Positions 21,943 to 63,563 of a stretch of 64,000 nt of DNA are shown here, in pieces. A program made the position numbers and the translations under genes. Source of the stretch: a phage; the sequence record PV730302.1. One strand, 5' to 3'. The notes under the pieces were generated by a model that was given only the letters and a program-made list of their open reading frames with translations, was not told the origin of the DNA and made no database searches. Each line of letters begins with the position of its first letter. Position 1 is the stretch's first letter.

Positions 21943-23502
21943 ATGAAAAAGAATGCATTAGTTCAAAAATGGTCCGCTCTGCTGGAAAACGAAGCCCTTC
22001 CTGAAATCGTGGGTGCTTCTAAACAAGCTATCATCGCTAAAATTTTCGAAAACCAGGAACAAGACATCCTGACTGCTCCGGAATACCGTGATGAAAAAAT
22101 CTCTGAAGCATTTGGTTCTTTCCTGACCGAAGCTGAAATTGGTGGTGACCACGGTTATGATGCTACCAATATCGCAGCTGGCCAGACTTCTGGTGCTGTA
22201 ACTCAGATTGGGCCGGCAGTAATGGGTATGGTTCGTCGTGCTATTCCTCATCTGATTGCTTTTGATATTTGCGGTGTTCAGCCTCTGAATAACCCTACCG
22301 GCCAGGTATTTGCCCTTCGTGCAGTTTATGGTAAAGACCCTATCGCTGCTGGCGCTAAAGAAGCTTTCCATCCGATGTATTCTCCGGACGCTATGTTCTC
22401 TGGTCAGGGTGCTGCTAAATCTTTCGAAGCACTGGCTGCAAGCAAAGTTCTGGAAGTTGGTAAAATTTATTCCCACTTCTTCGAAGCTACCGGTGCTGCA
22501 CACTTCCAGGCTGTTGAAGCTGTAACCGTTGATGCTGCTGCTACCGATGCCGCTAAACTGGATGCTGCTGTTACCGCTTTGATTGAAGCAGGTAAGTTGG
22601 CTGAATTGGCTGAAGGTATGGCTACTTCTATCGCTGAACTTCAGGAAGGCTTTAACGGTTCTACCGATAACCCGTGGAACGAAATGGGCTTCCGCATCGA
22701 CAAACAAGTTATCGAAGCTAAATCCCGTCAGCTGAAAGCAAGCTACTCTATCGAACTGGCACAGGACCTTCGTGCAGTACACGGTATGGATGCAGATGCT
22801 GAACTGTCCGGTATCCTTGCTACCGAAATTATGCTCGAAATCAACCGTGAAGTTATCGATTGGATTAACTACTCTGCACAGGTTGGTAAATCTGGTATGA
22901 CCAACACCGTTGGCGCTAAAGCTGGTGTGTTTGACTTCCAGGACCCGATTGATATCCGTGGTGCTCGTTGGGCCGGTGAGAGCTTTAAAGCCCTTCTGTT
23001 CCAGATTGATAAAGAAGCAGCCGAAATCGCTCGTCAGACCGGTCGTGGTGCTGGTAACTTCATCATCGCTTCCCGTAACGTAGTTAACGTACTGGCTGCA
23101 GTTGATACTTCTGTAAGTTATGCAGCTCAAGGTCTGGGTCAAGGTTTCAACGTTGACACAACCAAAGCAGTATTTGCCGGTGTTCTTGGTGGTAAATATC
23201 GCGTTTACATCGACCAGTATGCACGTTCCGATTACTTCACCATCGGTTATAAAGGCGCTAACGAAATGGACGCAGGTATCTACTATGCTCCGTACGTTGC
23301 ACTGACCCCGCTGCGTGGTTCCGATCCGAAGAACTTCCAACCGGTAATGGGCTTCAAAACTCGTTACGGTATCGGTATCAACCCGTTCGCTGACCCGTCT
23401 GCACAGGCTCCTACCAAACGTATTCAGAGCGGTATGCCTGACATCGTTAACAGCCTTGGTCTGAATGGTTACTTCCGTCGCGTATATGTTAAAGGTATCT
23501 AA
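21943..23502 (+). CDS. gp23: Major capsid protein gp23
   Basis: 519 aa; very high similarity to T4 gp23 as recalled; candidate late promoter TATAAATA at 21795-21802 inside the gp22 3' end. Confidence 0.97.
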   Translation: MKKNALVQKWSALLENEALPEIVGASKQAIIAKIFENQEQDILTAPEYRDEKISEAFGSFLTEAEIGGDHGYDATNIAAGQTSGAVTQIGPAVMGMVRRAIPHLIAFDICGVQPLNNPTGQVFALRAVYGKDPIAAGAKEAFHPMYSPDAMFSGQGAAKSFEALAASKVLEVGKIYSHFFEATGAAHFQAVEAVTVDAAATDAAKLDAAVTALIEAGKLAELAEGMATSIAELQEGFNGSTDNPWNEMGFRIDKQVIEAKSRQLKASYSIELAQDLRAVHGMDADAELSGILATEIMLEINREVIDWINYSAQVGKSGMTNTVGAKAGVFDFQDPIDIRGARWAGESFKALLFQIDKEAAEIARQTGRGAGNFIIASRNVVNVLAAVDTSVSYAAQGLGQGFNVDTTKAVFAGVLGGKYRVYIDQYARSDYFTIGYKGANEMDAGIYYAPYVALTPLRGSDPKNFQPVMGFKTRYGIGINPFADPSAQAPTKRIQSGMPDIVNSLGLNGYFRRVYVKGI

Positions 23503-23518
23503 GATATAACCTTATTAT

Positions 23519-23545
23519 GGGAGACTTCGGTCTCCCATTCTTGTT
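23519..23545 (+). terminator. Terminator hairpin after gp23 (GGGAGAC-ttcg-GTCTCCC)
   Basis: 7-bp stem with tetraloop; T-rich tail; also 3' of minus-strand ORF 23552..23818. Confidence 0.55.
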
Positions 23546-23551
23546 TCTGTA

Positions 23552-23818
23552 CTATGCAATCTTAACTCGACGGTTGATGATATCACGGAAGTCAATACGA
23601 TTTTCTTGGATTTTCAGCCAGTTACCAGATTTGTCTTTGGTATGGGTAGAGTATTCACCGTTCCACCAGAAATCAGTTTCATAAGCCAGAGCTTCGTATT
23701 TCTTAACCAATGCATTAACTGCATTACCATTAGGATTGGTACCAAATTTTTCTACCAGAGCTTTGATGTCTTTGTCAAGGTTAGAAAGAGTGGTACGGAT
23801 AAAGTTTAATTTGTTCAT
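23552..23818 (-). CDS. Hypothetical early protein (about 88 aa) between gp23 and gp24
   Basis: Minus-strand ORF; start taken as second ATG preceded by AGGAG; GTTTAC-N17-TAnTAT promoter upstream at 23845-23880. Confidence 0.55.
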   Translation of the reverse strand: MNKLNFIRTTLSNLDKDIKALVEKFGTNPNGNAVNALVKKYEALAYETDFWWNGEYSTHTKDKSGNWLKIQENRIDFRDIINRRVKIA

Positions 23819-23844
23819 TTTTAATCTCCTCATGTTTTGATAGG

Positions 23845-23880
23845 TCTATAGTAACACGACGCTTTTTGTGTGTAAACCAC
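23845..23880 (-). promoter_or_regulatory. T4 early-type promoter (GTTTAC, about 17-18 nt spacer, TACTAT)
   Basis: Minus strand reads GTTTAC..N17-18..TACTATAGACC upstream of ORF 23552..23818. Confidence 0.5.
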
Positions 23881-23883
23881 TTT

Positions 23884-23891
23884 TATAAATA
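23884..23891 (+). promoter_or_regulatory. T4-type late promoter TATAAATA (gp24)
   Basis: Exact TATAAATA about 30 nt upstream of gp24 ATG. Confidence 0.6.
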
Positions 23892-23920
23892 AAATTATAT
23901 TCTCAATAAGGAAAATAGCA

Positions 23921-25201
23921 ATGGCTAAAATTAACGACCTTTTAAAAGAGTCGACCATTACTTCGAGTTCTTCGATTGGTCGTCCAAATTTAGTAGCTTT
24001 AACCAGAGCTACGACCAAACTTGTTTATACCGACCTTGTAGCTCAGCAGCGTACTAACCAACCTTTGGCTGCTCTATATGGTATCAAATATCTTACAGAA
24101 AAAGATGAATTATCTTTCCAGACGGGTGCTACTTATTCCGGTGCAGTATCCGCTAAAGACCGTGCCACTATCCCAGTTTTCACTGCAGGTGCTGTTTACG
24201 CTAAAGATGATTTGTTCCAATTTGAAAACGTAGTTTATAAAGCTTTGGTAGCAACACCATTTGCAGGTGCTACTGGTGATGAATACGAACAACTTCAAGA
24301 AGCTATTGTTAAGTTGACTATTCGTATTATGTCTGACGCCGCACTGACTGAGCGTTTTGAAGGTCCTCAAGAAGTAGATATTTCTGAAGCTAAATTCGTC
24401 GTTAATAAATGGAACGCTCCAGTTAAATCCCGTAAGTTGAAGAGCACTGTTACTGTAGAACTGGCTCAAGACCTCGAAGCAAATGGTTTCGATGCCCCTA
24501 ATTTCTTGGAAGACCTCCTGGCTACTGAAATGGCTGATGAAATCAACAAAGATATTCTTCAGTCCCTGGTTACGGTTTCCAAGCGTTATAAAGTTGAAGG
24601 TTTGTGTGATGATGGCTTAATTGACCTGAGTTATGCTAACTCACCAGAAGCTTCTCGCAAGCTTTATGAGATAGTTTGTGAAATGGTTTCTCATATCCAG
24701 CGCGCAACCTCTTATACGGCAACTTATGTGGTAGCGAGTACTCGTGTAGCTGCTGTTCTGGCTGGTTCCGGATGGTTAAGACACACCCCACAGAACGACA
24801 AATATCTTTCTGCAAATGCATACGGATTCCTGGAAAACGGTTTGCCGGTGTATTGTGATACCAACACGCCAATTGATTATGTTACTGTAGGTGTTAAAGA
24901 GGAATTTGGTGGGAAAGAAGCAGTAGGTTCTTTGTTCTATGCGCCGTATACAGAAGGCCTTGATTTGGCTGACCCTGAACATGTGGGTACATTTAAAGTG
25001 GTTGTTGACCCTGAAAGCCTGCAACCATCTATTGCATTAATGGTTCGTTATGCACTGGCTGCTAACCCTTATACGGTTACTGCTGATGATAAACAAGCCC
25101 GTATTATTGATGCGACTAATATGGATTTGATGGCGGGACGTTCTGATATGTCTGTATTGCTTGGTGTGAAACTTCCTAAAGTTTTGACTGAATTAAACTA
25201 A
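23921..25201 (+). CDS. gp24: Capsid vertex protein gp24
   Basis: 426 aa; paralog-like to gp23; TATAAATA at 23884-23891. Confidence 0.9.
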   Translation: MAKINDLLKESTITSSSSIGRPNLVALTRATTKLVYTDLVAQQRTNQPLAALYGIKYLTEKDELSFQTGATYSGAVSAKDRATIPVFTAGAVYAKDDLFQFENVVYKALVATPFAGATGDEYEQLQEAIVKLTIRIMSDAALTERFEGPQEVDISEAKFVVNKWNAPVKSRKLKSTVTVELAQDLEANGFDAPNFLEDLLATEMADEINKDILQSLVTVSKRYKVEGLCDDGLIDLSYANSPEASRKLYEIVCEMVSHIQRATSYTATYVVASTRVAAVLAGSGWLRHTPQNDKYLSANAYGFLENGLPVYCDTNTPIDYVTVGVKEEFGGKEAVGSLFYAPYTEGLDLADPEHVGTFKVVVDPESLQPSIALMVRYALAANPYTVTADDKQARIIDATNMDLMAGRSDMSVLLGVKLPKVLTELN

Positions 25202-25202
25202 C

Positions 25203-25233
25203 AAAAAAGGGACCTCACGGTCCCTTTATCATT
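25203..25233. terminator. Bidirectional terminator between convergent gp24 and rnlB
   Basis: AGGGACC-tcac-GGTCCCT flanked by A-run on one side and T-run on the other. Confidence 0.65.
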
Positions 25234-26240
25234 TATTTGGATACTAGGTCAATCCATACATGTCTTAATGTTTCTTTTACAGACTCGATGAGTTGCTTTT
25301 TAACTTCAACAGGATTTTCAGCATCAGTTAATTCTAATTCTTCACGGGCAGCTTCTTCTAAGATATCTTGGACTGTCAAGCCCATTACCTTTCCAAAATC
25401 CTTCGGCGATACTTCACCAATCTTACTGATGACGTTGTTAATGCGGTTAACAGTCACATAATCAGTGAATTGCCACATCAAGTCCATATCGTCTTGGGAT
25501 AAAACCACTGCAACTTTAATAGGCTTATCAGACTTTTTCTTCTCGCTGAATTTAGAGTTCTTACATTTAATCGCTACACGATTTCCATTAGGAAGCCAGA
25601 GTGGGTAGCAAGGTTTTAATACATACCCTTCAGCCGTAAATACTTCGCCTTTTGCTTCAGCATTCCACACATGGGTATTAGCTTCAATTAGCCCGACGTT
25701 ATCTACCATAAAATTATAATCAGGAAGGACGGAATCTAAATCATTTGGCAATTTAATAAGGTCTTCAAATTTACCACGTCCTAAAAGTGGAGCCAGTTTA
25801 AATCCAAAGGTCTTACAAAATGATTCCATCATATAATCATCGACATAGGTCACATCACCGCTTTCGGTGGTAACAATAATGTCAAATACATAAAAATCTT
25901 TAGCACCGTAATCAACATTCTTCTGAATGCCCGTTCCAGCGAATTCACCGAAAACTTGATAAGATACAGCTGCCGAAGTTTCCATAATATCTTGTACGGC
26001 TTTAATAGAATCAGCATAGTTCTTAAGTACAATTTCATAACCATAGAAATCTTCAGCAGGGAGGATAGGGCCAGTGCGCTTGGCGCATGTGACTGCGTCA
26101 CGTTCTATGATTAAACTAAAGTTGGTCCCATGAATCTTCTCACGTGCTGCCCATTCACCACCAGTCAAACCGTTAGTACGGAGTTTTTCGATAAACTTAT
26201 TGTTGTAGTGGTTTTCGAGACTGCTATATTTCTTGAACAT
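25233..26240 (-). CDS. rnlB: RNA ligase 2 (Rnl2)
   Basis: 335 aa; strong similarity to T4 Rnl2 incl. KIHGTNFS adenylation motif. Confidence 0.9.
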
Positions 26241-26564: not shown

Positions 26565-26649
26565 AACAATTCTCTCGTTGAGTTGGTAAACCCATCTTAA
26601 CATAGGATTTTTAACTTGTAAACAGGAATTTTGTACTTTAATGCAAAAT

Positions 26650-38379: not shown

Positions 38380-38412
38380 GTAATAGTACCACATCCTTGT
38401 GGTAATGTAAAC
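38380..38412 (-). promoter_or_regulatory. T4 early-type promoter GTTTAC-N17-TACTAT
   Basis: Upstream of ORF 38064..38354; -35 element overlaps alt paralog 1 stop codon. Confidence 0.5.
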
Positions 38413-47211: not shown

Positions 47212-47244
47212 GTCTATAATAACACAACCTGTACCAAAGTAAAC
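47212..47244 (-). promoter_or_regulatory. T4 early-type promoter GTTTAC-N16/17-TATTAT
   Basis: Upstream of gene 46809..47174; part of repeated leader cassette. Confidence 0.5.
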
Positions 47245-51143: not shown

Positions 51144-51205
51144 TTCGATTTCCTCATTTGTTTCGGTAGGGTCATCATATCACCGTCCTTGGTGAAAGTA
51201 AACAC

Positions 51206-53129: not shown

Positions 53130-53162
53130 AGCATTATACTCTGCTCCCAAGAGTTTGTAAAC
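53130..53162 (-). promoter_or_regulatory. T4 early-type promoter GTTTAC-N18-TATAAT
   Basis: Minus strand consensus-like -35 and perfect TATAAT upstream of the pseT.1-position gene. Confidence 0.5.
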
Positions 53163-54419: not shown

Positions 54420-54452
54420 GTCTATACTAACACAACATGAGGAGATGTAAAC
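54420..54452 (-). promoter_or_regulatory. T4 early-type promoter GTTTAC-N17-TAGTAT (alc)
   Basis: Minus strand; -35 overlaps rnlA stop; AGGAG RBS follows. Confidence 0.5.
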
Positions 54453-63531: not shown

Positions 63532-63563
63532 TCTATAGTATCATGTTTAAAGCAGATGTAAAC
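63532..63563 (-). promoter_or_regulatory. T4 early-type promoter GTTTAC-N17-TACTAT
   Basis: Upstream of ORF 63275..63502. Confidence 0.5.

Follow-up and report, generated by a model that had tools for sequence, protein, structure and literature searches.

A small antisense gene behind an early-type promoter at the gene 23/24 junction of T4-type phages

The window, that is, the whole stretch of DNA analysed here, comprises 64,000 nt of sequence record PV730302.1, and all coordinates count from its first letter. A 601-nt query across the site of interest (window 23400-24000) shares 99.2% identity with Escherichia phage KIT01, which is classified in the genus Dhakavirus, and 98–99% identity with PSD9, AnYang, and C6; all four are JS98/JS10-like T4-type coliphages. 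Genes 23 and 24 of the window enclose a minus-strand open reading frame (ORF) that encodes 88 amino acids (aa), as an original prediction made from the letters alone had proposed. The ORF listing and a direct reading of the sequence bear this out, and the strands of the ORFs likewise agree with its claim that the gene is antisense to both late genes. The complete unit consists of a T4-early-type sigma-70 promoter, an AGGAG ribosome binding site, 88 codons, and a hairpin held in common with gene 23, and it is squeezed between the gene 23 terminator and the gene 24 late promoter (Table 1). The extent first proposed for it, 23519-23891, does hold the ORF unit, but its left end splits the terminator hairpin (23517-23538), which is part of the unit.

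Table 1. Features at and around the gene 23/24 junction, in window coordinates
Feature	Position	Strand	Remarks
Gene 23 (major capsid protein)	21943..23502	+	Left flank; ORF listing, KIT01 annotation
G+C-rich hairpin, ATGGGAGAC-ttcg-GTCTCCCAT	23517..23538	both	Separates the gene 23 stop (23502) from the convergent ORF stop (23552)
Coding sequence of the 88-aa protein, stop included	23552..23818	-	10.3 kDa, pI 9.5, PHROG 6003 family
Shine-Dalgarno sequence AGGAG	23826..23830	-	7 nt 5′ of the ATG; sequence reading
Extended -10 element TGtTACTAT	23848..23856	-	TACTAT 23853-23848, TG 23856-23855
-35 element GTTTACA (T4 early type)	23871..23877	-	TTTACA invariant in 6/6 rows of the spacer alignment
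Gene 24 late promoter TATAAATA	23884..23891	+	Faces away from the early promoter, whose -35 element is 6 nt distant
Gene 24 (capsid vertex protein)	23921..25201	+	Right flank; ORF listing, KIT01-like annotation
rnlB	25233-26240	-	ORF listing, annotated relatives
Further early-type promoters	26594-26623, 38383-38412, 47216-47244, 51174-51203, 53133-53162, 54424-54452, 63535-63563	-	

The hairpin at the left edge of the unit has a 9-bp stem with a T-rich tail on the plus strand and no U-run on the minus strand. Its two strands are about equally stable, with folding energies of -15.2 and -14.8 kcal/mol (z -3.1 and -4.5), and the stem carries compensatory changes across genera that keep the structure. 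This hairpin is the intrinsic terminator for gene 23 and probably a weaker stop for the ORF transcript. An Rfam search of the region returned no structured-RNA match of note. At the right edge stands the late promoter of gene 24, whose motif, TATAAATA, occurs 17 times in the window (7.3 copies expected), 13 of them on the plus strand. The promoter is invariant as TATTTATA in an alignment of the spacer between the ORF and gene 24 (six rows, covering Dhaka-, Mosig-, and Gaprivervirus and the region upstream of T4 segD; hereafter, the spacer alignment), and the annotation of phage fPS-90 places a late promoter at the equivalent position. The motif TATAAATA is not present on the ORF's own strand at the locus.

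Examination of the ORF itself indicates a real gene. The open minus-strand frame spans 23552..23833; the chosen start is the ATG at 23818-23816, the stop is the TAG at 23554-23552, and the 88-aa product reads MNKLNF...RRVKIA. A further in-frame ATG five codons 5′ of the chosen start is unlikely to be used because it overlaps the Shine-Dalgarno sequence. The latter, which the original prediction had already recognised as AGGAG, lies where it was claimed to be (23830-23826, 7 nt ahead of the ATG) and is kept as GAGGAG in the Dhaka- and Mosigvirus rows of the spacer alignment. Pairwise Nei-Gojobori comparisons give a dN/dS of 0.06-0.12 in every unsaturated pair (the window against JS98, VR5, Bp7, W143, and EcoM005; JS98 against VR5; and VR7 against SP18); between the window ORF and that of JS98, for example, there are 15.5 synonymous and 6.5 nonsynonymous differences. 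Given this low dN/dS, a confident fold model, and syntenic orthologues in three genera (both below), the 88-codon ORF is a genuine protein-coding gene under strong purifying selection where present. One could suppose instead that the frame is incidental, that it yields no functional protein, and that the effect at the 23/24 junction is one of antisense or divergent transcription. Transcription from the ORF promoter does converge on gene 23, and, as the hairpin lacks a U-run on the minus strand, read-through antisense to gene 23 is conceivable. Such an origin is scarcely credible, however, for a frame in which synonymous changes far exceed nonsynonymous ones, whose Shine-Dalgarno sequence is strong and conserved, and whose protein retains its length and fold at 32% identity.

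The sequence upstream of the gene resembles a T4 early promoter. The original prediction described it as GTTTAC-N17-TACTAT; both hexamers are there (GTTTAC at 23877-23872, TACTAT at 23853-23848), but the spacer was off by one, being 18 nt between the hexamers as written and 17 nt in the sigma-70 register, which begins with TTTACA. The base preceding TTTACA is G in five of the six rows of the spacer alignment and A in T4, and in Mosigvirus and T4 the extended -10 element reads TGATACTAT or TGATATTAT. The TG and the two hexamers are thus retained from Dhakavirus through Mosigvirus to T4, between genera whose proteins share 32% identity. The T4 early consensus GTTTAC sits at -36 to -31 (PMC1524935), and the ORF promoter combines this hexamer with a ∼17-nt spacer and a -10 element with TG, and faces an early-strand ORF. 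Transcription is predicted from these elements to start near 23841 on the minus strand. The class as a whole (GTTTAC-N17-19-TAnnAT) is ∼9-fold enriched in the window, with eight copies against 0.89 expected from shuffles, and none of 100 shuffles reached eight; all eight copies lie on the minus strand, which carries the early genes. This enrichment and the complete strand bias place the ORF promoter motif beyond chance. The seven other T4-early-type promoters of the window (GTTTAC ... TAnnAT, most with TG; Table 1) mark local early transcription units, and read-through from upstream early promoters such as that at 26594-26623 might also yield an ORF transcript. A second promoter-like site, TTGCTA-16-TATAAT (23921-23894, minus strand, 10/12 matches), overlaps the gene 24 start codon and ribosome binding site; we rejected it as a promoter since its -10 element is without conservation among relatives in the spacer alignment, and it probably arose by chance.

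These promoter features bear on when the gene is expressed. In T4, segD is classed as ‘early RNA / middle protein’, as are its minus-strand neighbours rnlB, 24.2, and 24.3 (PMC9697503 supplements). Our literature search did not find a Dhakavirus or Mosigvirus transcriptome. The promoter class with its strand bias, the conservation of the promoter across genera, and the early RNA of T4 segD together support early expression, and we infer that the 88-aa ORF is probably transcribed early.

Comparison across T4-like phages identifies four states of the 23/24 site. The original prediction had described this site as variable and as occupied in T4 by a seg homing endonuclease, and indeed T4 carries segD there, antisense between genes 23 and 24. 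In the empty state, seen in many Tequatroviruses and Karamviruses, the site is spanned in about 330 fewer bases; in Yersinia phage fPS-90, for example, an 83-nt spacer contains only the hairpin, TATAAATA, and the gene 24 ribosome binding site, and no early promoter. A second state, that of T4, has segD only, and a third has the ORF only, also antisense (the window, Gaprivervirus, and most Mosigviruses). In the fourth state the ORF is followed by a segD-like endonuclease (vB_EcoM_005, ATK47, IME08, F2, and LF82 phages). This endonuclease is a 219-aa GIY-YIG protein that shares 58% identity with T4 SegD, starts 3 nt past the ORF stop, and has no Shine-Dalgarno sequence of its own. In all occupied states the cargo lies between the hairpin and the late promoter, behind a homologous early promoter. 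Because the empty allele lacks the early promoter, the promoter travels with the cargo. The view that the ORF is different cargo from seg stands insofar as the two proteins differ, but the ORF is not a simple alternative to the endonuclease: the two co-occur in some phages and share one promoter, which makes them two passengers of the same site.

The protein itself carries no endonuclease motif, as had been predicted. SegD and the ATK47 endonuclease match the Pfam families SegE_GIY-YIG, GIY-YIG, and HTH_17, none of which the 88-aa ORF matches. We also considered that the ORF might be a decayed endonuclease and rejected this, as an hhalign comparison of the ORF family with SegD returned a probability of 0.8%. 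The T4 segD locus and the ORF locus are alike in their site of insertion, flanked by the hairpin of gene 23 and the late promoter of gene 24, in their antisense orientation, and in a homologous promoter, TTTACA-17-TAYTAT with TG. They differ in the protein encoded, which is unrelated and measures 223 aa in segD and 88 aa in the ORF, the latter without a GIY-YIG or HTH domain. In T4, the sigma-70 match TTTACA-17-TATTAT with TG (10/12) lies about 20 nt upstream of the segD start, at T4 coordinates 107253-107281 on the minus strand (2454-2482 in our T4 locus extract, L008). A 2010 review stated that a segD-specific promoter could not be found in T4 (PMC2988022). As a by-product of the present comparison, this conserved sequence directly upstream of the gene is a clear candidate for that promoter.

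Mosigvirus ATK47 suggests how the two passengers may spread. Its gene 23, gene 24, and promoter DNA are 93-98% identical to those of Mosigvirus TU01 (97-98% for the flanks). Its ORF, in turn, matches the Dhakavirus type at 95-98% identity and that of TU01 at only 53%, with the junction in the 5′ UTR (ORF and endonuclease at L007 887-1975). Mosigvirus flanks around a Dhakavirus-type ORF and an endonuclease are the expected outcome of homing with co-conversion of the adjacent gene between genera (compare PMC10448857), and the endonuclease appears to have carried the ORF into ATK47 in this way. The 23/24 site thus appears to be a clean natural example of a homing endonuclease that carries a neighbour gene across genera, which is a second by-product of this work. 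Another phage with both genes shows an anomaly of a different kind. In vB_EcoM_005 (ORF and endonuclease at L002 1565-2705), gene 23 (L002 177-1565) is annotated with 462 aa, against 519 aa in the window, and has an aberrant C-terminus (...DYFTVSTRSLTRLH...). The short gene adjoins the endonuclease insertion, and the record measures only 155 kb; the anomaly may reflect a deletion, a frameshift, or an assembly error.

Such associations invite the explanation that the ORF is itself part of a selfish homing-endonuclease cassette, in which it supplies the promoter, a 5′ leader, and translational coupling, and that it persists as a passenger, or as a remnant after loss of the endonuclease, with no function for the phage. 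The common promoter ahead of segD in T4, the tight spacing of the 219-aa endonuclease behind the ORF in the fourth state, and the joint arrival of the Dhakavirus-type ORF and the endonuclease in ATK47 would all fit. However, the dN/dS of 0.06-0.12 also holds between endonuclease-free genomes, and most records with the ORF are without the endonuclease (131 contain the ORF, whereas 38 contain an endonuclease copy of at least 80% identity). Furthermore, divergent orthologues (32-65% identity) retain length, fold, and site without it, some phages carry a family member with no endonuclease in its vicinity, and the ORF protein and the endonuclease are unrelated. We consider a mere cassette component quite improbable.

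The gene is widespread among phages. A tblastn search finds the protein in 131 phage records, and more than 100 genomes annotate it as a hypothetical protein. The label ‘unknown gene’ given in the original prediction therefore holds for its function and not for its novelty, as the gene is already annotated in these genomes and forms a protein family, PHROG 6003. Syntenic orthologues, antisense between genes 23 and 24, occur in Dhakavirus (JS98 orf173, JS10, Bp7, and VR5), Gaprivervirus (VR7 ORF190c and SP18, 65% identity), and Mosigvirus (TU01, 32% identity), and metagenomic T4-like contigs also encode the ORF between these two genes. More distant members (34-41% identity) lie elsewhere: Acinetobacter phage ABPH49 and two metagenomic contigs carry them within long arrays of small ORFs that share one strand, and a siphovirus-like contig carries one 3′ of a GpJ-type tail gene. 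No conserved partner gene was found near the non-T4 homologues. Looking for a host or prophage origin, we did not find the ORF in 5,426 complete E. coli genomes, nor does the window contain a paralogue. Judged by the phages in which its homologues occur, the gene has moved between unrelated lytic phages.

The gene is nonetheless, from the alleles compared, dispensable for this type of phage, since it is absent in T4 and most Tequatroviruses, is frameshifted in RB69, and exists in truncated forms (in phage mogra, P0022, and in a second copy, P0027). In RB69 the gene is split into ORF188c and ORF189c (L023 160-432, minus strand) by one +1 and one -1 frameshift with a cluster of substitutions, while the DNA remains 96% identical to the intact TU01 gene; the split gene is either a pseudogene or the product of old sequencing errors. 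Two further peculiarities appear among the relatives. The record of Escherichia phage W143 (L017) bears the label Tequatrovirus and describes gene 23 as AR1-like, but the ORF at its 23/24 site is of the Dhakavirus type (92% identity), which reflects either a further lateral transfer or imprecise taxonomic labelling. In addition, gene 24 is present as a tandem pair beside the ORF in Gaprivervirus VR7 and in two metagenomic T4-like contigs (L003 1-2395; L011 1337-3901; L018 1338-3897).

A family HMM places the window protein in PHROG 6003 with an E-value of 2.2e-49, aligning residues 1-88 with positions 1-88 of the 90 in the profile. Members of this family include JS98 orf173 (EpJS98_gp173), JS10_0170, VR7 ORF190c, and SP18gp189, all of them annotated as ‘hypothetical protein’, and our literature search found no mention of these locus tags or of PHROG 6003. 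Compared with PHROG 6003 and JS98 orf173, the window gene belongs to the same family and occupies the same genomic site, with no difference seen. Its protein matches those of JS10, KIT01, MX01, and AnYang at 100% identity, that of JS98 at 94%, that of VR7 at 65%, and the Mosigvirus type at 32%. An AlphaFold2 model built from a 20-sequence alignment has a mean pLDDT of 94.2 and a pTM of 0.80, and contains a helix (residues 3-25), a second helix (31-48), a β-hairpin (52-61 and 67-71), and a C-terminal helix (77-87). The BFVD model of a 41%-identical relative superposes on it with a TM-score of 0.91. Thus, the product is, as modelled, a single-domain helix–helix–β-hairpin–helix protein. Down to 28-32% identity, the family keeps its length (87-93 aa), an invariant Asn-Gly-Asn turn between helices 1 and 2, and the residues Lys40, Ala45, Gly65, and Gln71. 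Inspection of the protein sequence found no evident signal peptide, transmembrane segment, or catalytic motif.

Homology searches and structure prediction, the checks that the original prediction called for, matched no described T4-like protein of known function. Pfam and NCBIfam contain no match to the 88-aa protein. The defence HMMs of PADLOC returned nothing for three of the four members tested and one marginal match for the fourth, a distant member (P0024), to NsnC (E 0.0023, 15 bits). A family-profile search of PDB sequences found no relative, and structure comparison against the PDB and BFVD gave no neighbour beyond the protein's own small family. A word-index search of 5.8 billion proteins likewise recovered only this family. 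An exhaustive HMM search of 1.84 billion cluster representatives yielded no more than 10 proteins at E <= 0.001, of which several are fragments or spurious matches to repeats. Two apparent members (P0025 and P0026) are long repeat proteins that match only via a short ‘NGN...’ stretch, and we discarded them as spurious. A third (P0023, 160 aa, from a 701-bp ENA contig) fuses ORF residues of about 32-63 to an unrelated N-terminus; it is probably a chimeric assembly and was also set aside.

The composition of the protein raises the question of whether it binds nucleic acids. Of seven members for which a pI was computed, six fall at 9.5-9.8 and one at 8.0, and Arg and Lys abound in the C-terminal helix of the Dhaka and Gapriver types. 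With the gene adjoining the gene 24 late promoter, these properties are consistent with a small basic protein that regulates phage expression or DNA transactions, for example at the adjacent late promoter or terminator, or that coats or bends DNA in the manner of DsbA, MotB, or HU-type proteins. The basic pI, however, fits equally well with a protein that binds a host component, and no known DNA-binding fold was matched: solved members of the HU/IHF, winged-helix, and ribbon-helix-helix folds gave no superposition. We therefore regard a nucleic-acid binder of this kind as unlikely, if less so than the cassette component discussed above.

The location of the gene between the major capsid and vertex genes might also suggest a product that associates with the capsid, as an internal head protein or as a factor in assembly. 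The internal proteins of T4 are likewise small and basic. Against this, the promoter is of the early and not the late type, with no TATAAATA on the ORF strand; the protein is absent from T4 heads; and homologues elsewhere lie outside head modules. Nor is there an N-terminal capsid-targeting sequence with an (L/I)-x-E gp21 cleavage site of the IPI/II/III type. Residues 1-22 contain no Glu, and the sole L-x-E (L21-V22-E23) lies inside helix 1 and is not kept in the family, reading LVN in VR7 and LNA in ABPH49. A role in the head is very improbable.

We propose instead that the ORF is a real early accessory gene whose product binds a component of the host or of host defence. That it is a real early accessory gene we hold to be highly probable; that the product is such a binder, which we suggest by analogy, is possible but somewhat short of an even chance; and the explanation taken whole seems to us about evenly poised. 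Unmodified host RNA polymerase would transcribe the ORF in the first minutes of infection. The protein would then act stoichiometrically on a host or host-defence macromolecule, by binding and not by catalysis, and, as an accessory factor in anti-defence or host takeover, might confer a benefit that depends on the strain. The ORF would probably be silenced late in infection, as early promoters are shut off and convergent transcription of gene 23 starts. A binder is favoured over an enzyme because the protein has just 88 aa in a single domain, a basic pI, no Pfam, NCBIfam, or PADLOC match of note, and no structural neighbour; the assignment to the anti-defence or host-takeover class follows from its size, predicted timing, patchy distribution, and lack of motifs. 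A small, basic protein that is constrained yet dispensable and is exchanged between lytic phages bears the usual signature of early accessory binders. A toxicity screen of 45 early genes of Mosigvirus AV110 took in only genes with a T4 homologue, so that the ORF, which has none, was left out.

More speculatively, the protein may found a structurally novel family of phage inhibitors directed against a strain-variable immunity or host factor of E. coli or Acinetobacter, spread among T4-like genera by hitch-hiking on the segD-type co-conversion tract. Neither solved nor predicted structures (PDB, BFVD) offered a neighbour for its helix–helix–β-hairpin–helix fold. This extended conjecture is tentative, and we think it doubtful on balance.

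Small early ORFs with no assigned function number in the dozens in T4-like phages, and one more such ORF, already annotated and clustered, adds little by itself. Its value lies in being a well-defined candidate: a single-gene early-type unit that evolves under strong purifying selection and encodes a protein whose confident model has no counterpart among known folds. A gene that is both dispensable and horizontally exchanged also has the usual profile of anti-defence and host-takeover factors. Novel ORFs behind early promoters have been described in T4-type genomes (Nolan et al. 2006, PMC1524935), and, with such ORFs so well documented, the gene is an ordinary accessory gene and no surprise.

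Among known systems, a parallel in organisation is provided by the PeSLs, early-promoter/stem-loop cassettes on the flanks of T4-type phage ORFans (Arbiol et al. 2010, PMC2839356). In PeSL cassettes as in the ORF unit, a short, non-essential ORF has a strong sigma-70-like early promoter to itself, together with a stem-loop that acts as terminator; both are present in only some relatives and move as a module. An early promoter and a stem-loop also bracket the ORF here, but this stem-loop serves as the terminator of gene 23 itself and occurs in the empty allele as well. The ORF unit further differs from the PeSLs in lying within the conserved late head-gene block and not in a hyperplastic early region. 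A second parallel, in kind of protein, is with the small early ‘monkey-wrench’ or anti-defence proteins of T4-type phages (e.g., Arn, Dmd, IPI*, and AsiA), which measure about 60-100 aa and are early, non-enzymatic, dispensable, and patchy in distribution. The 88-aa protein differs from these in having no sequence or structural similarity to any solved structure; it resembles them in size, in predicted timing, in its presumably non-enzymatic action, in being dispensable, and in patchiness.
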